IMG/VR virus record: IMGVR_UViG_3300045988_117928
Location: 1 to 42,344 of that record
Source: a virus
DNA: 42,344 bases
Direction: 5' to 3' (one strand)
The notes under the pieces were generated by a model. The model was not told the origin of the DNA. It made no database searches and worked only from the letters and a program-made list of their open reading frames with translations. Shown piece by piece: positions 1,762-41,102 of this stretch. Made by a program: the position numbers and the translations under genes. Each line of letters opens with the position of its first letter. The stretch's first letter is position 1.

Positions 1762-1991
1762 GCAAAGAAGCCTACGTGGAGCACCTGGCGCACCGCGCGC
1801 TCTACGACGAGTACGCCCGCCCCGGTGTCGGCTGCCACCCCGCACTCAAACGGCTGCTGTATGAGCGCGGCTGGGCAGACCCCACAACAGGGCGACTAAC
1901 CGACGCAGGGCGCCGCCACATGACCTATCTCATCAATCAGCACATCATCAGTGGTGCGCCAATCCCAGGAGATCCATATGAATCCTGCTGA
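1758..1991 (+). CDS. Hypothetical protein
   Basis: 77-aa ORF, translationally coupled (start overlaps upstream stop). Confidence 0.4.
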   Translation: MSKEAYVEHLAHRALYDEYARPGVGCHPALKRLLYERGWADPTTGRLTDAGRRHMTYLINQHIISGAPIPGDPYESC

Positions 1992-2134
1992 ATTCCCCGA
2001 TGTCCGACCGCCGGCTGGAAGGCATTATCCCGAAGACGACGTGTCTGACATCGCGGTGTCTATCGGCTGTTCGACCGCGGTGGTCGCATTCATTTTGATT
2101 GTCATTTTTATCTCCAATTTGTAAAGGAGCTGTC

Positions 2135-2347
2135 GTGCAGAGTTACAGGAATCGTAGTGGCGATGTCGTTATCGATGAGCATTTTCTCGATGAGGACGTG
2201 TTTGTGACTGCTACCAGTCAGAAGGTCACGTGCCCGGTGTCTGTCTATTTCGGTGACAACAGTCACGATATGACCTCAGCAGAAGCTCGCTGGCTCGGAA
2301 CCGCCCTGATCAAATCAGCGAACCTAGCCGAAAGGGGAGAGGAGTGA
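2135..2347 (+). CDS. Hypothetical protein
   Basis: GTG at 2135 is preceded by AAGGAG at 2124-2129. In frame with track ORF 2099-2347. Confidence 0.35.
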   Translation: MQSYRNRSGDVVIDEHFLDEDVFVTATSQKVTCPVSVYFGDNSHDMTSAEARWLGTALIKSANLAERGEE

Positions 2348-3279
2348 CACAGCTTCAAATCCCCAACCGGCTGCACGTGGTGAAAGACCCGGCGCCACCC
2401 GGCACACCAGAGTGGGCTCGCCTGGTCACTGCGTCGAAGGTCGCCGGCATCGTCGGCGAGTCCGCCTACGCGACGCCATACAGCGTGTGGAACACGATGC
2501 GGGGCATCAGGGTTGAGCCTTCCGGCATGGAGGACCGGTTCTTGACTGGCCACGCGATGGAGCATGCCCTGGCCTACTGGTGGGCGCAGAAGAACCCAGA
2601 CTGGCGAATATCAAGGGGAGAGGTGCAGGTCACCAACCCGCACCTACCGTTCCCTAACGCTGCCACGCTTGACCGCATCGCGACCAGGAAAGGCCACGTC
2701 CGTAGCCCGAAGCATTCCCGTTGCGTGCAGTTCAAAACTGTTAGTGACTGGGAGGAGTATCAGAATCTGACGCCGGAGACGATTCCAGCGGATTGGCTCG
2801 TCCAAGAGACCATCGAGATGTTGTTCTCCGGGCTAGTACAGATGTCTGCGCTGATCGTGGTGTGCGGGCCGTTCTACGAGTGGAAGCAGCTGGAAGTGCC
2901 GTGGCTACCCGAGTTCGCCGTCGAGCTCGTTGAGTCGACGGAACACCACCTGGAGCTTGAGGAACCACCAGCCCCGACGGCGCCGAACGATTACAAGATC
3001 GCGAAGCTCCGGCACCCGGATATCGACGATGACGCCGCACCGGTGACCATCGACCATGCCACCGCTACCGAGTGGGACGAGACCAAGACCGCGGCAAAGC
3101 TTGCTGGCCGCATGAAGCGCACGGCGGATAAGCACGCTGAGGTGGCCGGGGCGAAGCTACTGGAAGCGATGGGTGCTGCCGCGACCGCCATCAACCCGGA
3201 CGGGTACGTCATCGCTAAGCGTGTCGCCACGAAGAAGGGCGTGCAGCTACGTCACGTGCCGCTACCGGAGGAGAAATAA
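2344..3279 (+). CDS. YqaJ-like viral recombinase exonuclease (lambda Exo / PD-(D/E)XK family)
   Basis: 311 aa. N-terminal TASKVAGIVGESAYATPYSVW...GHAMEHAL and the ...VQFKT pattern match YqaJ phage exonucleases. Sits immediately upstream of the RecT gene (exo-annealase pair). Confidence 0.75.
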   Translation: MTQLQIPNRLHVVKDPAPPGTPEWARLVTASKVAGIVGESAYATPYSVWNTMRGIRVEPSGMEDRFLTGHAMEHALAYWWAQKNPDWRISRGEVQVTNPHLPFPNAATLDRIATRKGHVRSPKHSRCVQFKTVSDWEEYQNLTPETIPADWLVQETIEMLFSGLVQMSALIVVCGPFYEWKQLEVPWLPEFAVELVESTEHHLELEEPPAPTAPNDYKIAKLRHPDIDDDAAPVTIDHATATEWDETKTAAKLAGRMKRTADKHAEVAGAKLLEAMGAAATAINPDGYVIAKRVATKKGVQLRHVPLPEEK

Positions 3280-4245
3280 ATGACACAGAAACCAACCACC
3301 ACAACTACCCGCGCTGAAAACAGTGCGGGTTTTCCTATCCCAGAAGGAGAAACCATGAACCTACCAGCGACAACAGGAAACCAGGGTGCCCAAATGCCGG
3401 CGCAGACGCTCATGCAGAAGGGCGTCGAGAAACTCCGCCAGCACGCTGAGCTCAAGCAAATGGCATACGACTACGCCGAGTTCATCACCAAGACCGGAGC
3501 GTGCCCAGCGATCTATAAGAACAAGCCGATGGATGCCGCGGCAGCGATTATCCGCGGCACAGCCCTTGGTTTCGACCCAGACGGCGCACTCGAAGCGTTC
3601 TTCGTCATCCAAGGCAAGACTGGCATGTACGCCCGAGCGATGATTGCCGTCGCAGAAAACGTTGGCTGCCGAGTGTGGGAAGAAGAGGCCACCGACGACT
3701 CGGTCACATGGTGCGGTATCCGCCCAGGCGATGACAAGGTCGAGCGTGTCACGTGGACGATGGAACTCGCTGAACGCGCAGGGTACACGCGGAATGCGAA
3801 GTACAAGACGAATCCGCGTGAGATGCTGCGCGCGAAGTGCCAGGCTGAGCTTGCCCGTATCGTCGCCCCAGGCGCATTGATGGGGTTGGTGTCGGAAGCG
3901 GAACCGGATGCGCATAAGCCGGTGCGTGCTGAGGCAACACGGGTTGATACCCAGCAAGGTGGCGCGTTGGGGGCGTTGGAGGCGGCACGACAGCGAGTCC
4001 ACGCACGCCGCCAACCAAAACCAGAACCGGAACCGGCGCAGGACGCGGACGTTATCACTGATGATGACCCGGAGCTGTTAGCTGCTGTTGTCGACGAGTA
4101 CCTGAGCGAGATTCCGAAGGCCCAGTCGCAGGATGAGGTCACCAAGATCATGAATGACGCCAAGGAAGACGGGCTGCCGCAGGAGCAGTTCGACACGGTT
4201 CGCCAGGCAGCTAAGGCACGTTGGGAGGAACTCAACAATGCGTAA
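3280..4245 (+). CDS. recT: RecT-family single-strand annealing protein
   Basis: 321 aa. Directly follows the YqaJ exonuclease gene in the classic RecET/Red-like arrangement. Acidic C-terminal tail. Confidence 0.7.
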   Translation: MTQKPTTTTTRAENSAGFPIPEGETMNLPATTGNQGAQMPAQTLMQKGVEKLRQHAELKQMAYDYAEFITKTGACPAIYKNKPMDAAAAIIRGTALGFDPDGALEAFFVIQGKTGMYARAMIAVAENVGCRVWEEEATDDSVTWCGIRPGDDKVERVTWTMELAERAGYTRNAKYKTNPREMLRAKCQAELARIVAPGALMGLVSEAEPDAHKPVRAEATRVDTQQGGALGALEAARQRVHARRQPKPEPEPAQDADVITDDDPELLAAVVDEYLSEIPKAQSQDEVTKIMNDAKEDGLPQEQFDTVRQAAKARWEELNNA

Positions 4246-4648
4246 CCCGAACCTTGTAGTTATTGGCGGCAACCTGGGTGGTGACGCGAGGTACGCGGTC
4301 ACGCAGTCCGGCAAAGAGGTTGTGTCGTTCTCGGTTGGGCATACCAGGTCGCAGTTTAATGAGCGGTCCAATTCCTGGGAAGAGGCCAACACAACCTGGT
4401 GGAACGTCACCTACTGGGGTAGTGACAGGGAAGATCTACAGCGCCTGTCTGAGCAGTTGACACGGGGCCGTCGTGTGATTGTGACCGGGCGTGCTGAGCA
4501 GCGCCCGTATACGACGAAGGACGGCCGCGATGGTGTCTCTCTGGACCTGCTGGCTTCCACGGTGAGTTTGGTGCCGAAGATTGGGCGTGACACTGCGGCG
4601 TCGAATACTGCTGCGGGGTTTGATTCCTCTGCTCAGCCGCCGTGGTAG
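4238..4648 (+). CDS. ssb: Single-stranded DNA-binding protein
   Basis: ATG at 4238 overlaps the recT stop. The OB-fold sequence MRNPNLVVIGGNLGGDARYAVTQSGKEVVSFSVGHTRSQF...WWNVTYWG...RVIVTGR is SSB-like. Gly-rich acidic tail. Confidence 0.8.
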   Translation: MRNPNLVVIGGNLGGDARYAVTQSGKEVVSFSVGHTRSQFNERSNSWEEANTTWWNVTYWGSDREDLQRLSEQLTRGRRVIVTGRAEQRPYTTKDGRDGVSLDLLASTVSLVPKIGRDTAASNTAAGFDSSAQPPW

Positions 4649-4663
4649 GAGTGACGCCACCGT

Positions 4664-4954: not shown

Positions 4955-5245
4955 CGGGGTGACACCGATGTCATGCCGTAGCGTTTTCACGACCTGACAC
5001 TGGTGACCGAACGACCTGACACCGGTGACCGAACGACCTGACACCGGTGTCATACAAAGCAGTAATAGAAGCTAATAGTTAACCCCGCTCGCTCCGCTCC
5101 GCTCACTCCGTTCGCTGCGCTTCGCTCCCTGTAAGACTTCCCGAAGCGGTAAATATCCCGCGGCATGACACTGGTGACATACCGCCACACACCCACCCCG
5201 ACACACAGCAGCGCCACCACTGGCACGCCCACACAACCCATATCG
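4955..5245. repeat. Iteron/ori-like noncoding tract: 3 tandem 22-bp repeats, palindromic TGACACCGGTGTCA sites, a CGCTC pentamer array and a CA-rich segment
   Basis: gacctgacac(t/c)ggtgaccgaac occurs three times at 4991-5056. The perfect palindrome tgacaccggtgtca is at 5039-5052, with related sites at 4960-4973 and 5164-5180. cgctc-type pentamers run about 5086-5130. Confidence 0.6.
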
Positions 5246-5246
5246 A

Positions 5247-5272
5247 CCGCGCTCTCGCAGCGCGGTTTTTTT
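5247..5272 (+). terminator. Rho-independent terminator
   Basis: ccgcgct-ctcgc-agcgcgg: a 7-bp perfect stem followed by TTTTTTT. Confidence 0.65.
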
Positions 5273-5289
5273 CATGCAAGGAGAAAACA

Positions 5290-5664
5290 ATGAGACGAAA
5301 CAGGGCATCCGCCAAAAAAGCCGGAGCCGCCTTCGAACGCCAAGTAGCTGACTATCTAGCCGCGCATGTTGATGACCGCATCGACCGCCGAGTCAAAACC
5401 GGAGCCAACGACTGCGGAGACATCGCCGGAGTCCGCACCCCCTGGAACGACCGCGTAGTCATCGAATGCAAAAACACCACCCGCATGAACCTCGGGTCAT
5501 GGATCAACGAAGCGGAAACCGAGCGGGTCAATGACGGCGCGTACATCGGCGTGGTTGTCCATAAGCGCCACGGCAAGGGCGACTCGGCGCAGCAGTTGGT
5601 GTCGATGACCCTGGAGACGTTCGCGAAGCTGTTGGACGGCAAAACCGGAGAAGATGCGCTGTGA
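5290..5664 (+). CDS. PD-(D/E)XK / VRR-NUC-like nuclease, putative Holliday-junction resolvase
   Basis: 124 aa. The motif GDIAGV...DRVVIECKNTT...LGSWINEAETERVNDGAYIGVVV matches D...E-x-K nuclease and VRR-NUC patterns. SD GGAGAAAAC upstream. Confidence 0.5.
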   Translation: MRRNRASAKKAGAAFERQVADYLAAHVDDRIDRRVKTGANDCGDIAGVRTPWNDRVVIECKNTTRMNLGSWINEAETERVNDGAYIGVVVHKRHGKGDSAQQLVSMTLETFAKLLDGKTGEDAL

Positions 5665-5690
5665 GCCGATTTAAGACACTGAATATCAGC

Positions 5691-5756
5691 ATGTGGGCAT
5701 GGGTGGCGCTCGGCCTGTCCTGGTCGCTCTACGAGCACGCTAGGGGGCAAAAATGA
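5691..5756 (+). CDS. 21-aa hydrophobic micro-ORF (MWAWVALGLSWSLYEHARGQK)
   Basis: In the gap between 5664 and 5753. Its stop overlaps the next start (ATGA). Very tentative. Confidence 0.15.
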   Translation: MWAWVALGLSWSLYEHARGQK

Positions 5757-6043
5757 GCAACCGACACGTGTGGAGCAACATTGACCCCGATGGTCAGCGT
5801 GTTTGGAACGTCACCACCTACACCAAAGACAAGTACACCTCCCAGACGCTCCCAGAATGGCCCCGCTTCCAAGGCTGGAAGGACGCGGTTGCCTGGGCGC
5901 TGCATCTGTATTCCATCGGTGAAGCGCCTGTCGATGACCGGCGGACGCGGAACCGTGACGCTGATTGGCCGTGTCTGACCTGCAACCGATGGTCAACCAA
6001 CTGCTGCAACCCGTGGGAAACACCCCAAGAACACGACGACTAG
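5753..6043 (+). CDS. Hypothetical Trp/Cys-rich small protein
   Basis: 96 aa. SD AGGGGG upstream. C-terminal CLTCNRWSTNCCNPW Cys cluster. Confidence 0.4.
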   Translation: MSNRHVWSNIDPDGQRVWNVTTYTKDKYTSQTLPEWPRFQGWKDAVAWALHLYSIGEAPVDDRRTRNRDADWPCLTCNRWSTNCCNPWETPQEHDD

Positions 6044-6052
6044 GAGCACAAA

Positions 6053-6289
6053 ATGACACCAGAACAAGCACGAAAACTACTCGCCGGAATGACCACCGAG
6101 TATGCGATTCAAGGAAGCTACGGAGACCCCAAGGAATGGTTCAGGCTCACCGAGTGGCAAGAAGATATGCCACCCCAAGGAACGCTTCGCGCTCTCGTCG
6201 ATGAGGACACAGGCGAACGGTGGCAAATCGACACACGCATCGTTGTCCGCTACGTCACCGCACCACAACCACTAGGAGAAAACCAGTGA
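6053..6289 (+). CDS. Hypothetical protein
   Basis: 78-aa ORF. SD GGAG upstream. Confidence 0.4.
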   Translation: MTPEQARKLLAGMTTEYAIQGSYGDPKEWFRLTEWQEDMPPQGTLRALVDEDTGERWQIDTRIVVRYVTAPQPLGENQ

Positions 6290-6383
6290 CCATCGACATT
6301 CTGATTCAGCTACTCACTGACCCCGGTTTCGCTATCGGCTACCTGGGCGAAGCCGCAAACCACCTCATCAACGGAGCACCACT

Positions 6384-6686
6384 ATGAGCATTATGAAACG
6401 CGCCACTAGAATCATCGAGATTGCCACGCGAGGAGCCCGCACCATCGACGGGCACCCCCTGAAGATTAGCGCCGATACCGCACGGAACATCGCAGAAGCC
6501 CTGGATGATGAGGGGCTCATCATGCCGGGGCATTCTGATGAACCAACGATGATATGGGGGCGGCGAGAGAAAGACGGCCGCATTATTTGGATGGGGGCAG
6601 ATACCCTCGCGGAACGCTTAGCCCGCGAGTCTGGGCGGGGAGTCGCTCGCTATATCGGCCCCATAGCCACCGTAGGGGAGCGGTGA
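6384..6686 (+). CDS. Hypothetical protein
   Basis: 100-aa ORF in the early operon. Confidence 0.4.
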   Translation: MSIMKRATRIIEIATRGARTIDGHPLKISADTARNIAEALDDEGLIMPGHSDEPTMIWGRREKDGRIIWMGADTLAERLARESGRGVARYIGPIATVGER

Positions 6687-6688
6687 CG

Positions 6689-6841
6689 ATGAACCACGTG
6701 ATTGAGCTCCCGGACGATGACGGCACCGGTTTCGACGCGGGCGACCTCGGCACCGCCTGGCTCCCATATTCGGAGCCCCGCGCACAAGACCTGGAAGCCC
6801 TGGCCGTAGCGCTCATCCAACACGCCAAGGACATGAAATGA
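6689..6841 (+). CDS. Hypothetical acidic small protein
   Basis: ATG at 6689, in frame with track ORF 6554-6841. Coupled to its neighbours. Confidence 0.3.
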   Translation: MNHVIELPDDDGTGFDAGDLGTAWLPYSEPRAQDLEALAVALIQHAKDMK

Positions 6842-6981
6842 CCGACAAACCCCGCGTGTGGAAAGCCGGGCACAACTGCTGGGCAGTCACCACCACCTAC
6901 TACTGCGAAGAACTCGGCGAGATGGTCTACACCACCCGGCTGTTCACAACCTGGCAACAAGCAATCAACTACGCCGTGTAA
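6838..6981 (+). CDS. Hypothetical small protein (MTDKPRVWKAGHNCWAVTTTYYCEE...)
   Basis: 47-aa ORF whose start overlaps the upstream stop. Shares a VW...W.VTT.Y motif with the 5753 protein. Confidence 0.3.
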   Translation: MTDKPRVWKAGHNCWAVTTTYYCEELGEMVYTTRLFTTWQQAINYAV

Positions 6982-7119
6982 CAGGACGAACGATGACCGA
7001 CGTGCTCGCGCTATGAGTACTACGGGTCATGGGGCCGGAGCATGGCTCTACCGAGCCAACGACGTGATTACAAGCGGGTAAAGTATCCTCCGATTGAATC
7101 ACGAAGAAGGGGGATCTAG

Positions 7120-7944
7120 ATGTGCGGGTTCCTAGTAGAGAAGCCAAAATGGTCGAAAAATAGCGTTCGGACAATGAGCACTAGGATTCGCCATGGAGAC
7201 CCATATGACGAAGATTTGTTCTGGCAAGTTATCGAGCGGGCAGAGACCATTAATGAGCACGTCACACCTATCGTCAATGACGTCGTAGCCACCGCTGGAT
7301 TGACAGAGCTAGAGCCCGGGGATGATTTGCTAGACCCGGAGTTCAACACAGGAGTGTTTGTCCTGTCGTCGAGAGCGAAAACCAAAACAACAACCATCGA
7401 GAAGCTGAAGCGACAGAAAACTCCTATTGATCGAGTAGATGACATGTCAGGGATTCGAATCGATGCGGCGATCACGCTCACCAAACAATCGACACTTGCA
7501 CTGGAGCTGGCAGATGCGCTGAAAAATGCAGGTGCGACAAGATGCAGAATAAAGGATCACCGCGGCCAGCCGCAGTCAGGGTATCGGGCAGTGCACGTGG
7601 TCGCAGAGTTCCCGGCCGGGCGCGTAGAAGTACAGATCCGTACGGCGATGCAATCATTATGGGCGAACACGTACGAAGTACTTGCGGATAAATTAGGCAG
7701 ATGCATCCGATACGGAGACTGGGAGTCTCTAGAGTCGCCTTTGCACCGAAAGTGGGTAGAGCTCCTACATGAGCTATCAGATGTCATCTACGAATTCGAA
7801 GAGTCTGTTGACCACTTTAAACACTTCGGTCGTGAGTCTATCGCGCAGGAGGAAGCGGAAGAGAGAGAGCAGCATCATTCAGAAATAGTGAGGAAAATTA
7901 AGGACCTACTGGGTAGGATGAGACCAGACGTCCCCACCTACTAG
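7120..7944 (+). CDS. RelA/SpoT-homolog small alarmone synthetase-like nucleotide pyrophosphokinase (toxSAS / Phrann gp29-like)
   Basis: 274 aa. Synthetase-domain motifs SGIRID...GYRAVHVV...VEVQIRTAMQSLWANTYE match the G-x-R, GYRS-H and EIQIRT-Q-WAE blocks of RelA/SpoT synthetases. The gene sits in a clearly lower-GC island (about 48-50% vs 62%). SD GAAGGGGG upstream. Confidence 0.7.
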   Translation: MCGFLVEKPKWSKNSVRTMSTRIRHGDPYDEDLFWQVIERAETINEHVTPIVNDVVATAGLTELEPGDDLLDPEFNTGVFVLSSRAKTKTTTIEKLKRQKTPIDRVDDMSGIRIDAAITLTKQSTLALELADALKNAGATRCRIKDHRGQPQSGYRAVHVVAEFPAGRVEVQIRTAMQSLWANTYEVLADKLGRCIRYGDWESLESPLHRKWVELLHELSDVIYEFEESVDHFKHFGRESIAQEEAEEREQHHSEIVRKIKDLLGRMRPDVPTY

Positions 7945-10439: not shown

Positions 10440-10874
10440 ATGCCAGGGCCAGTACCAAAGCGGTCGGATCAGCGTCGCCGCCGAAATAAACCTGATGGGC
10501 TTCCAACAGTGAAGGCAGCGGGGGCGGGCTCGGTGAAGCCGTTAGCGGAAGACCGTAACTGGCATATCAGCGCGAAGCGTTGGTATCGCAGCTTAAAGAC
10601 CTCTGGGCAGTCGGTGTTTTTCGAACCATCAGACTGGGCAGCCGCACACATCTGCGCGACGATCCTGTCTGATGAAATGAAGCGGCCGGAACCGGTCAGG
10701 GCGAACATCATCGCGCAGGTTAACTCGATGATGGACTCACTGCTGACCACAGAAGGGGCGCGCCGACGGCTGCGGATTGAGCTGCAGCGCGCCGATACGG
10801 ATAAGCAGCTTGACGACAATACGCAGGCCGCCATTTTGATGATGGATAGGTACAAGAAGAACTTGGCCGGTTAG
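10440..10874 (+). CDS. Terminase small subunit
   Basis: 144 aa. The N-terminus MPGPVPKRSDQRRRRN is characteristic of actinophage P27-family small terminases. SD AAGGAGG upstream. Immediately precedes TerL. Confidence 0.7.
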   Translation: MPGPVPKRSDQRRRRNKPDGLPTVKAAGAGSVKPLAEDRNWHISAKRWYRSLKTSGQSVFFEPSDWAAAHICATILSDEMKRPEPVRANIIAQVNSMMDSLLTTEGARRRLRIELQRADTDKQLDDNTQAAILMMDRYKKNLAG

Positions 10875-10896
10875 GTGGAAAGGCGGTGACGGTCCG

Positions 10897-12519
10897 GTGG
10901 TCGCCGCCGCAGATAGACTTATCACGTTGCCGGAGGGTATTCCGGAACGCACCCTCGGATGGAACGCCCTCGCATGGGCAGCAAAATACCTACGCCACCC
11001 CAACGGCATCCGTGCTGGTAAGCGCTGGGAGTTCACGCGCGAGCAGGCGCGCTTTATCCTGTGGTTTTACGCGGTCGATGATGAAGGCCGGTTTGTGTAC
11101 TATCACGCGGCTCGTCGGCTGGCTAAGGGCTCGGGTAAGTCGCCATTCGCAGCCGTGATGGCGCTTATTGAGCTGCTTGCTCCTGTCCGGCTGGACCATT
11201 TCGACGACAATGTCCTTGGTGGTTGTGTCGGCAAACCGCAGCCCATGCCGCTTGTGCAGATTGCGGCGGTCTCCCAGGACCAGACCGAGAACACTATGCG
11301 TATGGTTCGAGCGATGGTCGCTAAGCGCGCCGCACCTCAGCTCAACCGTGACTACCAAATCGATGCGGGTAAAACACAAATCAATGTGGAGCCAGCAGGG
11401 AAGCTGGAAGTTATCACGTCGTCGGCGGCGTCGGCTGAAGGTGCGGAAGCGACGTTCATCATCGGCGACGAGCTCGAGCACTGGACGAACTCTAACGGCG
11501 GCAATGAACTGCACCGCACGCTGCTGGATAACCTCGCGAAGTCCGGTTCCCGAATGCTGGAGACACTCAACGCCTGGAAGCCAGGCACCGGCTCGGCCGG
11601 GGAGGAAACATTCGAAGCCTGGACACTGCAGGAAGACGGTCGCACTAAGTCTGACCGCAAAATCCTCTACGACGCTCGCCAAGCCCCACCAGACACTGAC
11701 CTCGCTGATGAAGCCAGCCTGCGCGCCGGGCTGGCTTTTGTGTATGAGGATTGCCCGTGGGCTGATCTGGACGCGATTGTGGCGCGTATTTGGCACCCGA
11801 AGGCGCGGCCTGATGATTCGAAGCGGAAGTATTTGAACTGGCCAACTGCGTCGCTGGATTCGTGGTGTGATCCGCAGGACTGGGCGCAGATGTCCAGGCC
11901 CGACCGTGAACTCGTTGACGGTGAGCAGGTTGTTCTGTTTTTCGACGGTTCCTTGTCTAATGACCACACCGCGTTGGTTGGTTGCTGCATGGACGATGGG
12001 CATGTGTTCACCGCTGGCGTGTGGGCACCGCCGCCGGACGACGTCGTCGACGTCGAGGCGGTGGAGGCGGGTGTGCAGCGGGCGTTTGACCGCTTCGAGG
12101 TGCTGGCATTCTTCGCCGATGTCCGTGAGTGGGAGAGCTTCGTCAAGGTGGATTGGCCGGAGCGCTACGGCGACCAGCTGCGCCTGTGGGCAACACCTGG
12201 GGCGCGGAACCCGGAGCCGATTGCCTGGGACATGCGCAGCAAGGACTTTCCGTTCACGCAGGCGTGTGAGCTTGCGGCCGCCGAAATTGTGCAGCATGCG
12301 TTCACCCACGACGGCAACCCGCTTCTGAGTGAGCATGTGCGCAACGCTCAGCGGCATCTCGGCCGTTATGGCGAGACGGTGCGGAAAGAGTCACGCGCAT
12401 CACAGAAGAAGATTGACGCGGCAGTCTGCATGATTGGCGCTCGCATGGTCTACCGCATGGTCAAATCCGACCCGTCACTTAAGGCAGAGCCGGTCGATGA
12501 CACGGCATTTTTCTACTAG
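10897..12519 (+). CDS. Terminase large subunit
   Basis: 540 aa. Walker-A-like region LAKGSGKSPFAAVMAL. Nuclease-domain acidic residues in the C-terminal half. Position after TerS. Confidence 0.9.
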   Translation: MVAAADRLITLPEGIPERTLGWNALAWAAKYLRHPNGIRAGKRWEFTREQARFILWFYAVDDEGRFVYYHAARRLAKGSGKSPFAAVMALIELLAPVRLDHFDDNVLGGCVGKPQPMPLVQIAAVSQDQTENTMRMVRAMVAKRAAPQLNRDYQIDAGKTQINVEPAGKLEVITSSAASAEGAEATFIIGDELEHWTNSNGGNELHRTLLDNLAKSGSRMLETLNAWKPGTGSAGEETFEAWTLQEDGRTKSDRKILYDARQAPPDTDLADEASLRAGLAFVYEDCPWADLDAIVARIWHPKARPDDSKRKYLNWPTASLDSWCDPQDWAQMSRPDRELVDGEQVVLFFDGSLSNDHTALVGCCMDDGHVFTAGVWAPPPDDVVDVEAVEAGVQRAFDRFEVLAFFADVREWESFVKVDWPERYGDQLRLWATPGARNPEPIAWDMRSKDFPFTQACELAAAEIVQHAFTHDGNPLLSEHVRNAQRHLGRYGETVRKESRASQKKIDAAVCMIGARMVYRMVKSDPSLKAEPVDDTAFFY

Positions 12520-12530
12520 GAGGGCACGTT

Positions 12531-13928
12531 ATGAATGAGTCTCAGGCACGTGACGCAATCCGTGCTCTTTTGCAGGACCACTCGGTGCAACGACATCATT
12601 TCGATGAAATTAACCGTGCGGTACAGCCGTGGTCAGACACAGAGGCGGCGCGGCGTATGGATGTGGCGCAGGGGAAGAACTATCACCGTCATCTGCAGAT
12701 CGCGAAGATGTCTCAGACCCCGTTTCTTGGGCTTGTGCTGGACACCTACGGGCAGTCACTCAAAGTTGAGAACTATTTCTCGGAAGGGTCGGTGCAGGCC
12801 AGGTCGTGGCACCATTGGCAGACCAACCGAATGGATGCGCGCCAAACCGGGCTGCATCGTGCGGCGCTGCAGTATGGCACTGCGTATGCGTCGGTGCTGC
12901 CGTCAACGCTCAATGGGGCGCGTATTGGTGTGCATTCACCCCGCCGGCTGGTTGCCCGCTACGGGGAGGACATGACGTGGCCGGATACCGGGGCGGCAAC
13001 GCAGACGGAATTCCCGATTATCGCGATGGTCATCGATAACGGCCACCTGTGCCTTTACGACGAAGAGCGTGTTTACTTTTTCGGAGTTGAGAATGCACCG
13101 GATGAGCCGTTGGCGTGGCGGCAGCACTACTACCTGTCCCCGGAGAATCTTCCGTTTATCGAATATCGGGAGCACAACGTTGGTGTGACGCCCATTGTCC
13201 GGTATCAGGACCGCATGATGGCTGCCGGCGAAGAAACCAACGGCATTATCGAGCACCTGCTCGCGTTGTCGGCCAGGATTGACCGCACTAACTATGAGCA
13301 GGGTGTCGCGCAGTACTGGGCGGCGTTTAAGCAGCGTTATGTCACCGGTTGGGCTCCGAAGTCGGAGTATGAGGCGATGCGGCAGGCCATTAGCGACACG
13401 TGGACGTTTGCGAACAAGGACGTGAAGGTCGGCCAGTTCGATGAGACGGACCTGACGCAGTACATCAAGGCCCGTGAGTCAAGCGTGCGTGACTTCGCGG
13501 CGGTCGCCCAGGTTCCCGCACAGTCGCTCGGAGCGAATGCGATTTCCAATATTTCTGCTGACGGCCTGGCGGCGTTGGAGACGTCTAAGGATCGTAAGGC
13601 TTCTGAGATTCAAACCTCACTGGGGGAGTCGCATGAGCAGATGCTGCGCCTGTGTGCGCACATCGCTGGCGATGAAGAAGAAGCCGGGGACTTCGCCTCT
13701 GAAGTCAAGTGGGCGGAAACATCGGCTCGTTCGTTTGCTCAGACGGTCGATGGTCTCGGCAAACTCGCCACCATGCTTGGTGTACCACCAGACGAGCTGT
13801 GGTCGGATATCCCGGGCTGGACGCATGAGCGCGTCAAGCGGGCTAGGGAAGCGCAAGCCGGCCGTGGAAGTGGCTTATTCGACGTCAATGAGCCGGACGG
13901 TGGTCAGGAGCTGCAAACCGAACTGTAG
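12531..13928 (+). CDS. Portal protein
   Basis: 465 aa. SD GGAGGG upstream. Follows TerL. Size and position are typical of a siphovirus portal. Confidence 0.85.
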   Translation: MNESQARDAIRALLQDHSVQRHHFDEINRAVQPWSDTEAARRMDVAQGKNYHRHLQIAKMSQTPFLGLVLDTYGQSLKVENYFSEGSVQARSWHHWQTNRMDARQTGLHRAALQYGTAYASVLPSTLNGARIGVHSPRRLVARYGEDMTWPDTGAATQTEFPIIAMVIDNGHLCLYDEERVYFFGVENAPDEPLAWRQHYYLSPENLPFIEYREHNVGVTPIVRYQDRMMAAGEETNGIIEHLLALSARIDRTNYEQGVAQYWAAFKQRYVTGWAPKSEYEAMRQAISDTWTFANKDVKVGQFDETDLTQYIKARESSVRDFAAVAQVPAQSLGANAISNISADGLAALETSKDRKASEIQTSLGESHEQMLRLCAHIAGDEEEAGDFASEVKWAETSARSFAQTVDGLGKLATMLGVPPDELWSDIPGWTHERVKRAREAQAGRGSGLFDVNEPDGGQELQTEL

Positions 13929-13968: not shown

Positions 13969-15186
13969 ATGCCAACGCAGGACGCGAAACTCCGTGATAT
14001 CCAACGCCGACTACAGCGTGACGTTGCAGCGAAGATTGATGAGTTCGGTGTGCCGATGGACACGGACGCGGTTTATGACATCACCGTTGAGTTGCACCCC
14101 ATCGTCGTGAAATACCGACAGGAGGCCTACCGCGCCTACGTCGAGCAAATGGGACTCGATATGGCGCAGCTCGGTTTAGAAGTAGCCCCAGCACGAATCC
14201 AAGGCTACGGCCCCCACGCCACCTACGACGCACTGGCTAGAGCCGCCGGTTTTGGAGAGAAACCATCAAACATCATCCTCGAGCTCGTTGACGATGAGAC
14301 CAAGGAACTCATCAAGAAATCCGTACCGGCCTTTGCATTCCCTAATCACCCGCGAGTCATCGAGCAGATGAGCGCACGCCTGACCCGCACCCTCATGCGC
14401 CATACCCTCAACGCCGGCCGAAAAGCAGTCGCAGACACCGCACACCTCGGAAGAGTCCGCAACGCAACAACCAAACGCCCAATCGGACGCCGAATCGGCT
14501 ACGCCCGAGTACTCACAGGACGAGAATCCTGCGCTTTCTGCGCAATGCTCGCCTCTCGCGGCCCCGTCTACTCAGAAGATACCGCCACGCGCCGGGCTGA
14601 TGGGCGTCGTTATCACGATGGGTGCGACTGTCGTGCGGTTCTTGTTATTGAGGGGCAACCGTGGGAAGGGGAGCGGGAGTTTCATCGGTTGCAAGCAGCC
14701 TGGCGGGAGGCAACATGGGAGGACGGGCGGCCTGTCGATAATCAGTGGAATCGGTGGCAAAAGGCGGTGCACTCAGGGAAAGTCAAGTTGAGGGCAACCA
14801 GTGAAACGCAAAGACAGGGAAAGTTAATTCTTAACGGAGTTAAGCCTGCTGCTCATGAGACGAAAACATACAATTTTTTGGTATCTCAGGGCCATGTTGT
14901 TGAGCTAATTCCGCGAAGTAATACTAGTAAAACTGCAGACTGCATGATCGACGGCATCAAGGTAGAGATAAAAGCTCCACAAGGAAGTGGTAAAGAAACC
15001 ATCTATCAATTGGTGAGAAACGGCAGTAAACAAAGTGCGACTCTAATTATTGACCTCCATCGGTCTAGCATTCCAGTTGACGAAGCAATTCTCCAGGTAG
15101 ATAGAGCGATGGCACGGTATACTCGAGTTAAGCAGGTAACTATTATCACTCGTGATCGGAAGGTGGTGAAGAAAACTCGTGGCTGA
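13969..15186 (+). CDS. MuF-like head morphogenesis protein fused to a C-terminal polymorphic-toxin-like domain
   Basis: 405 aa. Residues about 1-270 are SPP1 gp7/MuF-like, with the conserved CAFC...HDGCDC block. The C-terminal ~130 aa are encoded by a sharply lower-GC segment (about 14790-15186) carrying a D...E-I-K (ADCMIDGIKVEIK) nuclease-like motif. Confidence 0.75.
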   Translation: MPTQDAKLRDIQRRLQRDVAAKIDEFGVPMDTDAVYDITVELHPIVVKYRQEAYRAYVEQMGLDMAQLGLEVAPARIQGYGPHATYDALARAAGFGEKPSNIILELVDDETKELIKKSVPAFAFPNHPRVIEQMSARLTRTLMRHTLNAGRKAVADTAHLGRVRNATTKRPIGRRIGYARVLTGRESCAFCAMLASRGPVYSEDTATRRADGRRYHDGCDCRAVLVIEGQPWEGEREFHRLQAAWREATWEDGRPVDNQWNRWQKAVHSGKVKLRATSETQRQGKLILNGVKPAAHETKTYNFLVSQGHVVELIPRSNTSKTADCMIDGIKVEIKAPQGSGKETIYQLVRNGSKQSATLIIDLHRSSIPVDEAILQVDRAMARYTRVKQVTIITRDRKVVKKTRG

Positions 15187-15547
15187 CAGTACTTCTTTTG
15201 AATCTGATGCAGGAATTAGAGACGTAATTAATCTCTTCAAGCAAGTCGGAGAGTGCACTGCTCTTTCTGTTGATGAAGATGATGACTTGACAGTTCGGTT
15301 TGGAACTCCAGGCGGGGCCTACGTCACTGCTTTCTGGGATTTGAAGCCGGATATCGACGAGTATGAAACCGTGGTCGATGTGTATGAGCAGTCAGACAAA
15401 GGGGCAGCTTCACGACTTTTTAAATATGTGGCTACAGCTTTTGATGATAAAGCCGTATTACGAGCACCTGATTCGGCAGAAGTTATTGCGAGAGCCAGTG
15501 GCGGCCATATCGTATGGGAAAACAATACAAGTAATGGTCTGAATTAA
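15179..15547 (+). CDS. Acidic small protein, putative immunity protein for the MuF C-terminal toxin domain
   Basis: 122 aa. GTG start overlaps the MuF stop (GTGGCTGA). Low-GC like the toxin domain. Acidic composition. Confidence 0.45.
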   Translation: MADSTSFESDAGIRDVINLFKQVGECTALSVDEDDDLTVRFGTPGGAYVTAFWDLKPDIDEYETVVDVYEQSDKGAASRLFKYVATAFDDKAVLRAPDSAEVIARASGGHIVWENNTSNGLN

Positions 15548-15653
15548 ACACTTATGTATTTGAAAATACCGCTAATACGGTGAACTTTAAGTACTGCTAA
15601 ATAGCCATGGAGTAGCCACATTTGCGGGAGTGCGAGTCCCCGCCATGGCACTA

Positions 15654-15688
15654 CCCCGCACCACAAGAAGTGGTGGCGGGGTTTTCTT
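15654..15688 (+). terminator. Rho-independent terminator
   Basis: ccccgcaccac-aagaa-gtggtggcgggg stem followed by TTTTCTT. Confidence 0.6.
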
Positions 15689-15722
15689 ATGCCCGAAAAC
15701 AGATTTACCCAGGAGGTAACTC

Positions 15723-16235
15723 ATGTCGGAGGAAAACACCGCCACCGAAGCCAGCGCCGAGCAGGTGGCGCACACCGGAACCCAGGAGGAACCGGACAAT
15801 ACTGATGCGCAGCCCGTGCCCGAGCACTTCCGAAAGGAACTCGAGGAAGCACGACGCGAAGCAGCACGCTACCGCACCGAACGCAACGAACTGCGAGCAG
15901 ACGCGGAGAGCTGGCGCACACAGCAGGAAGCAGAAAAGACGGAACTGCAAAAGGCCACCGAGCGCCTAGCCAGCCAAGAAGACGCGTTCAAGGCTCTGGA
16001 GGCCGAAAACACGCGCCTTCGACTGGCAGCCCGCTACGGCATCGCCGAGGAAAACCACGACCTTCTCGGCTCAGGCAGCCCAGAAGAAATCGAAGACCGC
16101 GCCAAGCGGCTCGCAGCGATGCAGAAGGAACAGACCCGACCACCGTCAAAAACCCCGGTGGAGCAACTCGGTGCCGCAGTCCGTTCGGAGCCGGAAACTC
16201 CACCAAACGCATTCCCTGCAGGATGGCCAGTCTAA
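15723..16235 (+). CDS. Scaffolding protein
   Basis: 170 aa, highly acidic, coiled-coil (EELEEARREAARYRTERNELRADAESWR). SD AGGAGG upstream. Precedes the capsid genes. Confidence 0.65.
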   Translation: MSEENTATEASAEQVAHTGTQEEPDNTDAQPVPEHFRKELEEARREAARYRTERNELRADAESWRTQQEAEKTELQKATERLASQEDAFKALEAENTRLRLAARYGIAEENHDLLGSGSPEEIEDRAKRLAAMQKEQTRPPSKTPVEQLGAAVRSEPETPPNAFPAGWPV

Positions 16236-16278
16236 ACCCGACTGGCCATTTTCCATTTCAACCTGATTGGAGGACGCA

Positions 16279-16641
16279 ATGGCTTCCACGCCGATGCATT
16301 TCACCCCAGCAACCAACATCACCGGCAAGGCCCAGGGCGACATCGCCCAGGGCACCTTCGTCATCATCGCCGCCGACATGGAAGGGCGTAACCCCGTCGT
16401 CAAGGCAGCTACCGCCGACGCTGATGCGTTCGGTGTCGCAGCACACGACGCCAAGGACGGTGAGCACTTCACCATCTACCGCCTCGGTATCTACGAGCTG
16501 GTCGCCTCCGGCGCTATCACCGCAGGAGACAAGATCTCCACAGCCGCAGGCGGCAAGGCGAAGAAGGCAACCGACGGCCCCGTCGCCGGCATTGCTGTAA
16601 CCAAGGCCGCTAACGGCACCGTAACGGTCGCCCTGAACTAA
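16279..16641 (+). CDS. Small head protein (decoration/cement-like, DUF2190-type)
   Basis: ATG at 16279 follows SD GGAGGACG. 120 aa, Gly/Ala-rich beta protein, between scaffold and major capsid. Confidence 0.4.
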   Translation: MASTPMHFTPATNITGKAQGDIAQGTFVIIAADMEGRNPVVKAATADADAFGVAAHDAKDGEHFTIYRLGIYELVASGAITAGDKISTAAGGKAKKATDGPVAGIAVTKAANGTVTVALN

Positions 16642-16653
16642 GGAGGAAACACA

Positions 16654-17565
16654 ATGGCACGTGACCCAATGTTCCCGCTTTCCGGCCCCAACGTTGAAAA
16701 CGGGGCTATCACCATCGACATGATGCTCAACGAGCCGACCCGCATCGACAACTATGCGGCGCAGCTGGTTGAGCGAGACCTCCTGTCGAAGGTCATCTTC
16801 GGCAACGTCACCACCACCGGCGGTGCGCTGCTGTTTGACCAGCTGGTCAAGAACACACCGACCGCAACCGACAAGCCGGGCATTGTCGCTCCGGGCGCTG
16901 AGTTCCCGGTGCTGCACACCCCAGACGGTGAGCCGGTTGTCGCGCGTGTCCAGAAGACCGGTGGCAAGTTCGGTGTCACGGATGAGGCACGTATCCGCAA
17001 TGATGCGATGCTGCTGCAGCGCAAGATTTCCCAGGTCTCCAACACCATGGTGAAGGATCTGGACGAGCGCGGCATTTCGGCTCTGACAGAGGCAATCGAC
17101 AAGATTGACGGAACCCTGAGCGTGACATCTGGTGGCTGGGATAAGGCCGCCGAGGTCGCAGCAACCGCGAAGACCGCGAAGACCGGCGAGGGCGAAGTCA
17201 TCAGCAACCTGCTGGACGCGCAGCTTGCTATCGAGCAGACTGACCTTGGCTACAGTGCTGACACTCTGGTGCTCAACCCGGTTGACGCTAAGAACCTGAA
17301 GCTGCTGCTTGGTGTCGCCAACTACCAGGAGATGCTGGGCACCTTCGGCCTGACTCTGCACTCCACCAACGCCATGAAGAAGGGCGAGGGTCTGGTGCTG
17401 CAGGCCGGCATGGTTGGCGTAATGGGCGTCGAGTCCCCGATCTCGACCGAGACGTGGCGTGACGCCTCGACTCAGACGACCTGGTCCCAGACCTGGGCGA
17501 CCGTCGCGTTCGGTGTCACCGACCCGCTGGCCATGGTGAAGCTCAACGGCCTGTCTGCGGGGTAG
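16654..17565 (+). CDS. Major capsid protein (HK97 fold)
   Basis: 303 aa. Strong SD TAAGGAGG. Position after the scaffold gene and size are typical of a major capsid protein. Confidence 0.85.
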   Translation: MARDPMFPLSGPNVENGAITIDMMLNEPTRIDNYAAQLVERDLLSKVIFGNVTTTGGALLFDQLVKNTPTATDKPGIVAPGAEFPVLHTPDGEPVVARVQKTGGKFGVTDEARIRNDAMLLQRKISQVSNTMVKDLDERGISALTEAIDKIDGTLSVTSGGWDKAAEVAATAKTAKTGEGEVISNLLDAQLAIEQTDLGYSADTLVLNPVDAKNLKLLLGVANYQEMLGTFGLTLHSTNAMKKGEGLVLQAGMVGVMGVESPISTETWRDASTQTTWSQTWATVAFGVTDPLAMVKLNGLSAG

Positions 17566-17568
17566 CGT

Positions 17569-17952
17569 ATGTTTGCCACCTCTAGGGACGTTCGCCTGCG
17601 GTGGCAGACCGCCCCCGCCTCGGTCACAGATGACGCCATCGAGGCTGTTCTAGACGACGCGGAAGCATGGCTGCGGGCAAGCTACCCGCAAATCCCGGCT
17701 ACCCCGGACGAGAATCTTCGGAAGGTTCTCGCGCTGGTGTCGGTGTCTATGGCGAAGCGAGCGCTGGCCGCAACTGACCGAGGCGGTATCACGCAGCAGC
17801 AAGCCACTGCGGGGTCGTTCTCGCAGTCCACCTCGTGGCGGAATCCGGACGGAGACTTGTTCCTTTCCGGCCAGGAACGGCAGATGCTGGAATCCGCGTT
17901 GCAGGATTTCAGCGCTGACCGGGCAGTGAGTATGGAGGCAACCGGATGGTAG
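17569..17952 (+). CDS. Head-tail connector/adaptor protein
   Basis: 127 aa. Conserved position after the capsid gene. Confidence 0.5.
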   Translation: MFATSRDVRLRWQTAPASVTDDAIEAVLDDAEAWLRASYPQIPATPDENLRKVLALVSVSMAKRALAATDRGGITQQQATAGSFSQSTSWRNPDGDLFLSGQERQMLESALQDFSADRAVSMEATGW

Positions 17953-36167: not shown

Positions 36168-37244
36168 TTAGACCACTCCACGCAGCTGCTCATCCATCAC
36201 ATCCGCCACCGCATCCAAATCATCATCAAAAAGATCTGCATACGTGTCTAGCGTCATAGCCGCGCTCGCATGCCCAAGCTGAGACTGCACAACCTTCACC
36301 GACGCGCCAGACCCCACCATCAACCCCGCGGCCACATGCCGCAGGCCATGCGGAGTCACATATGGGAACTTCTTGTTAGCCTTCATGACCCGCTCTAGGT
36401 TCCCGTAGTACCAATCCGGCTTACTCGGTGTCGGCAGTGGCCCACCATCACGTGCCGGCCACAACAGCGCATCCGGCAGCTTGTCTTTCAGCAGTGGCTC
36501 GAGCATCCGCATAACCTTTTTCGGCACTGCTACCGTGCGCTGCTCGTGCGTCTTTGGCGTGCCGATGATGACTTTGCTGCCGACAGTGACAGCATTACGT
36601 TCAACACTGATACGCCGTTTGAGAACATTGACATCACGCACTCGCAGCGCTGCGGCCTCGCCCCACCGCAGCCCAGTGGTAGCCAAAAGCCAGATGAGCT
36701 CAGGGCGCTTGGAGTCTGTGGCTAGGGTCTTGACCTGCTCGGCGGTCAGGTACACCTTTTTCGCTTTCGGTTTGCGCGGCAGGCGCACACCACGGGCTGG
36801 ATTAGTGGCCAGCACTCCGTCCCCAACAGCGACATCGAGAACCTGCGCCAGGCAAGCATGAGCCTTCCTCACCGTCGACGCACCAGCGCTAAAATCGGCC
36901 AGCCAAGTTTGCACATCGGAGCGCTTAATCCGACCAATCTGCCACCCACCCCAGTACGGATCCACATGCACACGCCAGGCCGACTCAGTGGTTCGATACG
37001 TCGACGGCTTGAGGTGCGTCTGCGCCGCCAGCCACGCAGTCCCAAGATCATGCACGGTGCGGCGACGTTCCATCTCCGGCGCCCAGGTGCCATGTCGCAT
37101 AGTGATGGAGTTTTTATCCGCCCATGCTTGTGCTTCGTCTTTGGTGCGGAAGCCCTGCTTGGTGCGGCTTGTGCCGTCGGGTGCGCGGTACTGCACCCGC
37201 CACCCGTAGCCTTTTGCTTTCTTGTAGCGCTTAATGCTGGCCAT
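36168..37244 (-). CDS. int: Tyrosine integrase
   Basis: 358 aa. N-terminal arm-binding-like domain and core-binding domain. The catalytic region ...HGLRHVAAGLMVGSGASVKVVQSQLGHASAAMTLDTYADLF carries the R...HxxR...Y pattern. Confidence 0.9.
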   Translation of the reverse strand: MASIKRYKKAKGYGWRVQYRAPDGTSRTKQGFRTKDEAQAWADKNSITMRHGTWAPEMERRRTVHDLGTAWLAAQTHLKPSTYRTTESAWRVHVDPYWGGWQIGRIKRSDVQTWLADFSAGASTVRKAHACLAQVLDVAVGDGVLATNPARGVRLPRKPKAKKVYLTAEQVKTLATDSKRPELIWLLATTGLRWGEAAALRVRDVNVLKRRISVERNAVTVGSKVIIGTPKTHEQRTVAVPKKVMRMLEPLLKDKLPDALLWPARDGGPLPTPSKPDWYYGNLERVMKANKKFPYVTPHGLRHVAAGLMVGSGASVKVVQSQLGHASAAMTLDTYADLFDDDLDAVADVMDEQLRGVV

Positions 37245-40325: not shown

Positions 40326-41102
40326 ATGTCAGAACTGATTCCGATTCAGGACAGCGGTGGGGTTCAGGCGGTCATGGGCCGCGACCTCCACGCATTCCTG
40401 GAAGTTGGTGCCGAGTATCGGCACTGGTTCCCACGTATGGTCGCATACGGATTTGAAGAGGGGAAAGACTACACGGTCAAAATTGACCGGGTACAAGACT
40501 CTCTCGGGCGTGAGCGCGAAGCCATGAACCATGTCATCAGTCTGGATATGGCGAAGGAAATTTCCATGATCCAGCGCACCGACAAGGGCAAGCAGGCTCG
40601 TCAGTACTTCATTGAGTGTGAGAAGCGGTACCAGGCTGGTGAGATGAGCGAGCTTGATGAGGCGAAGCTTGTCCAGAGAGCTCTGCAAATCACCTACCGC
40701 CAAGTGCGGGAACTGGAAGCTGTAAACGCTGAAATGCAGCCGAAGGCTAGCTACTTCGATGAGTTTGTGGCGGACGAGGATCTTATTCAATTCCGGACTT
40801 TGGCGAATCAGCTGGAGATTAAAGAGTCCGCGCTTCGTCAAATCCTGATTGACCATAAATGGATTTACAGGGTTGAAGGTAAGCGCTGGTCAAACAAGCG
40901 CAACAAGATTGTCAATGTTTATCAGTATCGGGCGTATGCGGAAAAGAAGCCTCTGTTCCGGTTGGTGCCTTGTCATGAGGCACCGCGGATTAATGGCGAG
41001 GTGCAGCAGTCGCTGAAGCTTACTCCGCGCGGGGCGGAGGCGGTCACGAAGGCTGTGAAGAAGTGGCTGCGGGGTCCGTCGGTGGAGAAGAAGTCAGCGT
41101 AG
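40326..41102 (+). CDS. Phage antirepressor (Bro-N / KilAC-type)
   Basis: 258 aa. The N-terminus MSELIPIQDSGGVQAVMGRDLHAFLEVGAEYRHWFPRMVAYGFEEGKDY is typical of AntA/KilAC antirepressors. Confidence 0.7.
   Translation: MSELIPIQDSGGVQAVMGRDLHAFLEVGAEYRHWFPRMVAYGFEEGKDYTVKIDRVQDSLGREREAMNHVISLDMAKEISMIQRTDKGKQARQYFIECEKRYQAGEMSELDEAKLVQRALQITYRQVRELEAVNAEMQPKASYFDEFVADEDLIQFRTLANQLEIKESALRQILIDHKWIYRVEGKRWSNKRNKIVNVYQYRAYAEKKPLFRLVPCHEAPRINGEVQQSLKLTPRGAEAVTKAVKKWLRGPSVEKKSA

Follow-up and report, generated by a model that had tools for sequence, protein, structure and literature searches.

The viral contig IMGVR_UViG_3300045988_117928 from IMG/VR (42,344 nucleotides, analyzed at its full length and called the window here) encodes a MuF-like minor head protein of 405 amino acids (aa), and the end of its open reading frame (ORF) is overlapped by a small acidic ORF of 122 aa. 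Together, these two genes very probably constitute a polymorphic toxin locus of the MuF family, composed of a PD-(D/E)XK nuclease at the C-terminus of the head protein and a cognate immunity gene, both of which are located in an exchangeable cassette. The C-terminal domain of the 405-aa protein was found to match the CdiA_C toxin family with its active-site motif intact, the small gene is linked to this toxin in all of the lineages that were retrieved, and near-identical phages carry different toxin/small-ORF pairs at the same junction. An earlier note on this DNA had proposed a MuF protein fused to a toxin-like domain with an immunity-like gene downstream, and both ORFs are located at the positions that were claimed for them (Table 1).

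Toxin Domain and Putative Immunity Protein

Residues 85–247 of the 405-aa protein match Pfam VG15 (PF25310) with an E-value of 5.6e-22, and a Pfam scan at E ≤ 1 assigned the N-terminal part to no family other than VG15. The GenBank homologues of this part are labelled "MuF-like minor capsid protein", and residues 6–276 are 58% identical to gp5 of Corynebacterium phage Juicebox. A search of the PDB with a profile of the MuF core returned no relative. PHROG 193 and PHROG 13257 are matched as well, and the latter, a profile of 405 positions, spans both halves of the protein; the MuF–toxin fusion architecture is thus already present in phage protein collections. In three relatives without a cassette (loci L024, L026, and L030), the MuF protein stops at 283–284 aa, and the claim that a MuF-like head protein is joined here to a separate C-terminal domain is borne out by this comparison.

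The extension past the MuF core is about 123–130 aa in length. Residues 321–399 were found to match Pfam PF18451 (CdiA_C) along the full model (positions 1–81 of 81) with an E-value of 1.9e-13. The scores obtained for the whole protein and for the domain alone were 50.8 and 52.4 bits, respectively, against a gathering cut-off of 26.6. At about 123 residues, the toxin domain is longer than the Pfam model. PF18451, for which cd13442 is the equivalent entry in CDD, forms the toxin domain in CdiA-CT(II) of B. pseudomallei 1026b (Bp1026b), a Mg2+-dependent tRNase of the PD-(D/E)XK clan that cuts tRNA-Ala. It is also the toxin of the myxobacterial SitA3, for which tRNase activity is listed. The window protein therefore carries an extension of at least 100 aa whose toxin domain is common to other polymorphic-toxin families (CdiA and SitA3). 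From the profile matches, the domain is assigned to the described family PF18451/cd13442, which is already recorded as MuF cargo.

A HMMER scan of 1.84 billion representative proteins retrieved 573 relatives of the toxin domain (E ≤ 1e-3), and only 2 matches were returned by a word-indexed homologue search with the toxin. The relatives fall into four groups, namely MuF fusions, actinobacterial proteins of 686–981 aa that carry the toxin domain at their extreme C-terminus, one tandem duplicate, and stand-alone proteins. Stand-alone proteins of about 125–135 aa, with a Met just ahead of the domain, make up most of the 573 relatives. Many of these are rich in Lys, Asn, and Ile, a composition that suggests that they stem from hosts of low guanine-plus-cytosine (GC) content. 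One partial protein of 84 aa (P0002, "CdiA C-terminal domain-containing") is 98% identical to the toxin domain and was deposited as Enterococcus faecalis; it looks like contamination or a mislabelled contig, since all of the other close relatives are from Corynebacterium or its phages.

The toxin domain contains the motif ADCMIDGIKVEIK. In an alignment of 61 family members, K335 and D362 are invariant, and H296, E297, D324, E333, and Q355 are each conserved in at least 90%. The PD-(D/E)XK-like pattern that had been read from the letters of the window falls on conserved columns of the family, where D324, E333, and K335 form the classical (P)D...ExK signature. No match was obtained when the PDB was searched with the sequence of the toxin domain alone, and the family profile was required; using the profile of the 61 members, the sole meaningful match was chain 4g6v_A (E 9.3e-7). 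The published catalytic residues of Bp1026b, E187, D214, and D223, are aligned in this profile comparison with E297, D324, and E333, respectively.

An AlphaFold model of the toxin domain, built on the alignment, was obtained with a predicted local distance difference test (pLDDT) score of 93 and a predicted template-modelling (pTM) score of 0.83. When this model was compared with the PDB using Foldseek, 4g6v_A was the only significant match (E 3.1e-6, probability 1.00, template-modelling score 0.63–0.65), and tRNA-splicing endonucleases and Hjc resolvase ranked far below it. The secondary-structure elements follow one another in the same order as in chain A of 4G6V. With an isoelectric point (pI) of 10.1 and a net charge of +10, the domain is basic. 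It most likely cleaves RNA, and the substrate is probably tRNA.

The 122-aa protein is acidic, as had been noted, with a pI of 4.2 and a net charge of –13, and it thereby complements the basic toxin. No match to this protein was found in Pfam, PHROG, NCBIfam, PADLOC, or the PDB, and it has no sequence or specific structural similarity to chain B of 4G6V (CdiI-1026b). Searches of 5.8 billion proteins, using the sequence and then a profile, returned 12 clear clusters and one partial match. The members are all about 102–127 aa in length, one of them is named from Corynebacterium uterequi, and a central block (TPGGAYVTAFWDLKPDIDEYETVVDVYEQ) is strongly conserved. The GTG start is supported by conservation from the first residue onward. 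The AlphaFold model has a pLDDT of 86.5. The 122-aa protein represents a family and a fold without prior description. It had been suggested that the toxin and immunity families are both nonstandard; this holds for the immunity protein and does not hold for the toxin, which falls within PF18451/cd13442.

A homologue of the 122-aa protein is encoded directly 3' of every close toxin relative that was retrieved, usually with an overlap, and the downstream gene is thus co-conserved with the toxin in six lineages of six, in support of the immunity-like gene that had been proposed. The lineages are those of the window and L015, of L002 (with the short contigs L003 and L004), of L010, of L011, of L012 and L013, and of L006. 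The immunity homologues in these lineages are 32–60% identical and are always found beside this toxin subfamily. The identity of the MuF N-terminal parts ranges from 29 to 62% and is uncorrelated with that of the toxins. Since toxin and small gene are paired on differing MuF backbones, they move as one unit. A 112-aa ORF that follows the toxin of a distant locus, L034, gave a co-linear but weak alignment to the immunity profile (hhalign E 0.0034, probability 9.6%).

Cassette Exchange and Orphan Modules

The sharp drop in GC content that had been reported to begin at about 14790 is present. The GC content of positions 14790–15547 was determined to be 0.443, compared with a window mean of 0.588 (standard deviation of 0.029 for 758-bp windows), which corresponds to a z of –4.9. 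This segment is the GC minimum of the whole 42 kb, with the runner-up near 7064 at 0.507, and the profile falls from about 0.60 to 0.42–0.47 across roughly 14750 to 15600. The GC content at third codon positions (GC3) is 0.40 for the toxin part and 0.36 for the 122-aa ORF, as against 0.63 for the MuF N-terminal part and 0.68 for the portal gene. Since the drop is carried by GC3, and thus by synonymous sites, it is a break in composition and not a reflection of amino acid content.

A scan of viral contigs with the MuF core yielded 52 loci. Comparison with near-identical phages places the variable segment at about 14760–15602 (some 840 bp), and the limits of 14790–15547 that had been proposed for it were therefore near the mark and slightly too narrow. 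Loci L016, L017, and L018 are 92.5–96.4% identical to the DNA of the window on both flanks; their homology ends at 14719–14759 and restarts exactly at 15603. The junctions of L019 are at 14769 and 15603, with 90–92% identity over shorter stretches. At the protein level, homology to Juicebox ends at residue 276, and that to the toxin family begins at about residues 281–283.

In place of the window cassette, L016–L019 carry a papain-fold glutamine deamidase toxin (Gln_amidase, PF15644) and an ORF of 80–82 aa. At the same junction, EndoU (PF14436) and an overlapping 85-aa ORF are found in the Juicebox-type phages, and an ADP-ribosyltransferase (ADPrib_exo_Tox, PF03496) and an ORF of 123–127 aa are found in L029 and L031. 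The EndoU copy of L020 is frameshifted, and some relatives (L024, L026, and L030) have no extension at the junction. The DNA homology between the window and Juicebox covers 10464–13843, 14127–14680, and 15600–17952 and skips the cassette. This variability at the junction is the defining behavior of a polymorphic toxin, and with different toxin/small-ORF pairs at one junction between flanks of 92–96% identity, the domain swap put forward in the earlier note is confirmed.

Relative to the backbone, the swap is of recent date, because near-identical backbones bear different cassettes. It had been claimed that the break in composition marks a recent swap; the recency is upheld by the comparison of backbones, and the use of composition as its marker is not. 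The related cassette of L002 is equally low in GC (GC3 of 0.37–0.38), yet its DNA is only about 67% identical, and the related cassette of L011 is not low in GC. As judged from these sequences, low GC alone is no clock. The low GC shared by the cassettes of the window and L002 was also considered as an argument against a recent swap, and this argument was dropped in view of the different cassettes carried by backbones of 92–96% identity.

Orphan modules and immunity genes were found in chromosomes. In L006 (C. uterequi CP011546, 2700–6330), a truncated gene for a MuF–glutamine deamidase fusion is located beside insertion sequence (IS)/transposase (rve) genes and is followed by its 132-aa partner. 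Next to these is a start-less orphan in which the MuF junction peptide PNQWRRWRA(H/Y)(V/I)EGGNLNARDYSPFT recurs, with a complete CdiA_C domain and an immunity homologue after it. A scan of contigs with the immunity profile yielded one locus, L014 (C. propinquum DSM 44285, NZ_AQXC01000002.1), in which the last 48 toxin codons are followed by an intact immunity gene (4001..4330) and then by another, degenerate copy of the element at the right boundary that is described below. In L005 (assembly GCA_977040735), the last 17 toxin codons are followed by an intact immunity gene that is situated among housekeeping genes, about 240 nt from a tRNA-Val gene. The retention of the small gene after loss of the toxin is as expected for an immunity gene. 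The L006 and L014 loci look like prophage remnants.

The L014 island (1200–7000) also contains two copies (2087..2449 and 6558..6929) of a protein of about 123 aa, "MSDRYKEMGLEMLP...", which is the product of the ORF that L029 and L031 carry 3' of their ADP-ribosyltransferase MuF toxins. The island also includes a stray scaffold gene, and a tRNA-Leu gene is nearby. Judging by its gene content, it seems to be a collection site for genes of the immunity type that stem from several MuF cassettes.

Right Boundary and Surrounding Phage Genome

The homology to all of the related backbones restarts exactly at 15603, which is the first base of a conserved tRNA-like element. In this minihelix (15604–15652), a 7-bp acceptor-like stem, GCCATGG/CCATGGC, surrounds a short linker along with a T-arm-like hairpin. 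In 15 distinct relatives, the outer stem retains 6–7 of 7 pairs, the linker is 12–16 nt in length, and a 5-bp stem closes the loop T[TGA]CGA[GAT]T. The base pairs were counted by script; MAFFT misaligned the two stem registers. The changes in the outer stem are compensatory (GCCATG/CATGGC, AGCATG/CATGCT, GCGCTA/TAGCGC, and GTGCTA/TAGTGC), and those in the T-stem are likewise compensatory.

A strict structural descriptor of the minihelix gave 24 matches in 380 kb of related loci, compared with about 0.07 expected per shuffled window. There is one match per locus, on the + strand and 5' of the scaffold gene, and all are at the syntenic site. The minihelix of the window itself fails the strict descriptor through a one-base insertion in the T-stem. 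Rfam and ARAGORN made no call on the window minihelix, and a literature search on the tRNA-like element returned nothing relevant. In two more distant relatives, this slot is taken by a genuine tRNA gene, namely tRNA-Ser in L032 and tRNA-Tyr in L049.

The minihelix is directly followed by a terminator-like hairpin, which is present in the minimum-free-energy fold of the 175-nt intergenic region (z = –2.6) and is kept across relatives with a variable loop. The ATG of the scaffold gene is at 15723, after this hairpin and a ribosome-binding site. Minihelix and terminator are parts of the backbone, because they are kept with any cassette and also without one, as in L024, L026, and L030. The minihelix could be a shortened tRNA gene retained as a signal for RNA processing, it could be a transcript end, or it could simply be the first conserved sequence at which recombination can take place.

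The window is a temperate Corynebacterium-type phage, and its temperate lifestyle is indicated by genes for a tyrosine integrase and an antirepressor, together with a YqaJ/RecT pair. A 274-aa ORF at 7120..7944 on the + strand, among the early genes, contains a RelA_SpoT nucleotidyltransferase domain (PF04607, E 1.3e-10; PHROG 4773) and is located in the part of the window with the second-lowest GC content (about 0.51). With this domain, the ORF may encode a small alarmone synthetase carried by the phage, or it may constitute a toxSAS-like module.

Table 1. Features of the MuF–toxin locus, with coordinates in the window unless another locus is named
Feature	Coordinates	Strand	Remarks
Portal-like ORF	12531..13928	+	directly 5' of the 405-aa ORF
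MuF–toxin ORF, 405 aa	13969..15186	+	adjoins the 3' side of the portal-like ORF
Core of the MuF-like minor head protein, residues 1 to ~275	13969..14790	+	includes the CAFC...HDGCDC cysteine block
Junction/linker between MuF core and toxin, residues about 268–282	14770..14814	+	left recombination boundary
C-terminal toxin domain, residues about 283–405	14815..15186	+	CdiA-CT(Bp1026b)-like PD-(D/E)XK nuclease, predicted RNase/tRNase
Predicted catalytic residues H296/E297	14854–14859		
Predicted catalytic residue D324	14938		
Predicted catalytic residue E333	14965		
Predicted catalytic residue K335	14971		
Predicted catalytic residue Q355	15031		
Predicted catalytic residue D362	15052		
Small acidic ORF, 122 aa	15179..15547	+	GTG start; 8-nt overlap with the stop codon of the 405-aa ORF
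Conserved tRNA-like minihelix	15603..15652	+	right edge of the variable cassette
Terminator-like hairpin CCCCGCACCAC-AAGAA-GTGGTGGCGGGG, then TTTTCTT	15653..15692	+	5' of the ribosome-binding site of the scaffold gene
Tyrosine integrase	36168..37244		PF00589, E 1.4e-20
AntA/KilAC antirepressor	40326..41102		
Example minihelix copy, L007	5034–5078		
Example minihelix copy, L016	4148–4192		
Example minihelix copy, L024	3322–3368		
Example minihelix copy, L002	5391–5436		

Proposed Function and Comparison with Known Systems

In the reading that we prefer, the locus encodes a toxin that would be carried by the phage particle. The MuF part would associate with the portal and the capsid, and the C-terminal nuclease would be its cargo, which the MuF domain would bring into the capsid and which would enter the infected cell together with the DNA. 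There, the predicted toxin would cut RNA, probably tRNA, using Mg2+ and residues E297, D324, E333, and K335. The 122-aa protein, whose synthesis is probably coupled to that of the toxin by translation, would inhibit the basic toxin by binding to it, both in the producer and in other cells that carry the gene. The cassette would be swapped by homologous recombination between two conserved flanks, of which the left one is formed by the 3' end of the MuF core and the right one by the tRNA-like element and terminator, and orphan cassettes in prophage remnants would serve as donors.

Several results weigh against this reading or against parts of it. The toxin domain is only about 17% identical to the solved homologue (4G6V), and since the PD-(D/E)XK enzymes also include DNases, the substrate is uncertain. 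The lysine of Bp1026b, K242 on the next helix, lies in an insertion in the alignment, and K335 of the ExK motif would take its role here; as judged from the alignment, the geometry of the active site differs in detail from that of Bp1026b and represents a variant arrangement in which K335 of the ExK motif is invariant. When the MuF core was compared with SPP1 gp7 using hhalign, only the DGCDC/DDCNC motif was aligned (E 0.12). The divergence of the toxins and that of the immunity proteins are uncorrelated over the six lineages (r = 0.21, p = 0.46), because these lineages are about equally distant from one another, and co-evolution of the two sequences beyond their constant linkage is unsupported by this test. 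A promoter scan for separate expression of the immunity gene found no promoter-like site, with the limit that the sigma-70 consensus may not suit Corynebacterium.

The pair might instead serve the phage during infection. The injected nuclease would then stop host translation or destroy host defense RNAs, the small protein would guard the late protein synthesis of the producer until lysis, and the chromosomal orphans would be counter-defenses of the host. It is in keeping with this explanation that the toxin is fused to a virion-associated protein encoded in the late structural operon, that the promoter scan gave no separate site for the small gene, whose 8-nt overlap suggests co-expression with the toxin, and that intact orphan immunity genes from which the toxin has been deleted are present in chromosomes (L005 and L014). 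An influence on the outcome of infection is also considered by Jamet et al. (PMC5576092). However, the rapid swapping of four unrelated chemistries and the loss of the cassette from some relatives fit diversifying competition better than a required take-over of the host, and the orphans of L006 and L014 are in apparent prophage remnants, where ordinary decay could explain them. We regard a role of this kind as unlikely, and as the most serious of the alternatives.

It is considerably less probable that the cassette is a toxin–antitoxin or abortive-infection "moron" of the prophage, expressed in the lysogen for phage exclusion or prophage stability, to which the fusion with MuF would be incidental. 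The foreign composition (GC3 of 0.36–0.40), the terminator-like hairpin directly 3' of the cassette, as is typical of morons, and the many stand-alone family members of about 125–135 aa would be accommodated by such a function. Every phage copy of the toxin, however, is read in frame with MuF and lacks its own start codon, the scan of the + strand in and ahead of the cassette gave no promoter-like site, and the terminator and tRNA-like element belong to the backbone, being present in L024, L026, and L030 without a cassette. The least probable explanation of all, and one that is very hard to sustain, is that the head protein ends in an inactive relic or in a purely structural extension and that the downstream ORF has an unrelated function: decayed related copies do occur (the frameshifted EndoU of L020 and the truncated MuF gene beside the IS/transposase genes of L006), but every conserved catalytic position is intact here, the confident model matches an active toxin fold, and the downstream ORF is conserved from residue 1 (32–60% identity) in six lineages and always with this toxin subfamily.

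If the preferred reading, a virion-borne toxin with a cognate immunity gene, is extended further, three proposals can be made, which we offer tentatively and with more doubt than confidence. The 122-aa protein may found an undescribed immunity family that is confined to Corynebacterium phages, the orphans may show that MuF toxins act on prophage-less cells, and the minihelix and terminator could be an undescribed structured RNA. As a structured RNA, the element might be a processing signal of the RNase P/Z type or a recombination anchor that sets the site of cassette exchange. If these proposals are true, the chromosomal orphans would constitute genetic evidence on what MuF toxins do.

The class of system to which the locus is closest was described by Jamet et al. 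in 2017 (BMC Biol 15:75; PMC5576092), who listed the cd13442 (Bp1026b) nuclease among the cargo of MuF polymorphic toxins. It was hypothesized there that the heads are loaded with these toxins, which are then delivered along with the DNA, and the Bp1026b domain was cited as a highly toxic cargo (PMC5576092). The physiological role of MuF toxins was still called unestablished in 2025 (PMC12226406). As in the systems of Jamet et al., the window has a head protein gene 3' of the portal gene, a variable C-terminal toxin, a small immunity-like gene, a temperate phage as the carrier, and different toxin domains on closely related backbones. The toxin/immunity pair by itself is an expected member of this described class. 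The host group here is Corynebacterium (Actinobacteria), whereas the MuF toxins of the 2017 survey were found mostly in Firmicutes, and the N-terminal part here matches VG15 (PF25310). Orphan modules and recombination are documented here, and the words "orphan" and "recombination" have 0 occurrences each in the main text of the 2017 paper (PMC5576092). What goes beyond the 2017 description is the undescribed immunity family, the mapped recent swap with its orphans, and the tRNA-like boundary element.

The CdiA-CT(II) toxin of Bp1026b and its immunity protein CdiI (4G6V) resemble the window pair in the fold of the toxin, in the order of its secondary-structure elements, in the aligned acidic catalytic residues, and in the combination of a basic toxin with a small protein encoded directly 3', the neutralization by which is predicted here. 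The Bp1026b toxin is delivered by a type V secretion (CdiB/CdiA) filament, whereas the carrier here is a phage head protein. The two toxins also differ in the lysine of the active site (K242 on the next helix in Bp1026b, K335 of the ExK motif in the window family) and are only about 17% identical.

A fusion of VG15 and CdiA_C (PF18451, E 1.7e-14) was also observed in gp9 of Mycobacterium phage MalagasyRose (L008, NC_073465, 2186–3675), which is annotated as a "capsid maturation protease and MuF-like fusion protein". The overlapping gp10 of 103 aa, annotated as a "scaffolding protein", occupies the position of the immunity gene and has no significant similarity to the 122-aa protein (BLASTP E 0.035 over 16 residues). 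The gp10 protein may be mis-annotated.

The layout of the orphan modules in contact-dependent growth inhibition (CDI) systems and in Rhs systems allows toxin switching by homologous recombination. Orphan toxin/immunity modules of these systems were reportedly described by Poole et al. in 2011. The orphan module of L006 has the same layout, with a conserved pre-toxin stretch, a complete alternative toxin domain, and an immunity gene, and it is promoter-less. In contrast to the CDI and Rhs systems, the carrier here is a phage structural gene, and the homology on the right is provided by a noncoding tRNA-like element and not by a coding repeat.

The locus provides a well-delimited actinobacterial example of a MuF toxin system, with exact junctions, four toxin chemistries on near-identical backbones, a donor-type orphan, and orphan immunity genes in chromosomes. 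Since Corynebacterium phages such as Juicebox are in culture, it amounts to a compact natural experiment, set in a host group that is tractable. Juicebox (NC_048070), in whose gp5/gp6 pair the toxin is named an "EndoU domain-containing protein" in RefSeq, is the closest named phage, and it has the same gene order as the window, namely terminase, portal, MuF–toxin, small overlapping ORF, tRNA-like element, scaffold, cement protein, and capsid. The two phages differ in the cassette, where Juicebox has EndoU (PF14436) with an unrelated 85-aa ORF and the window has the CdiA_C domain with the 122-aa protein.

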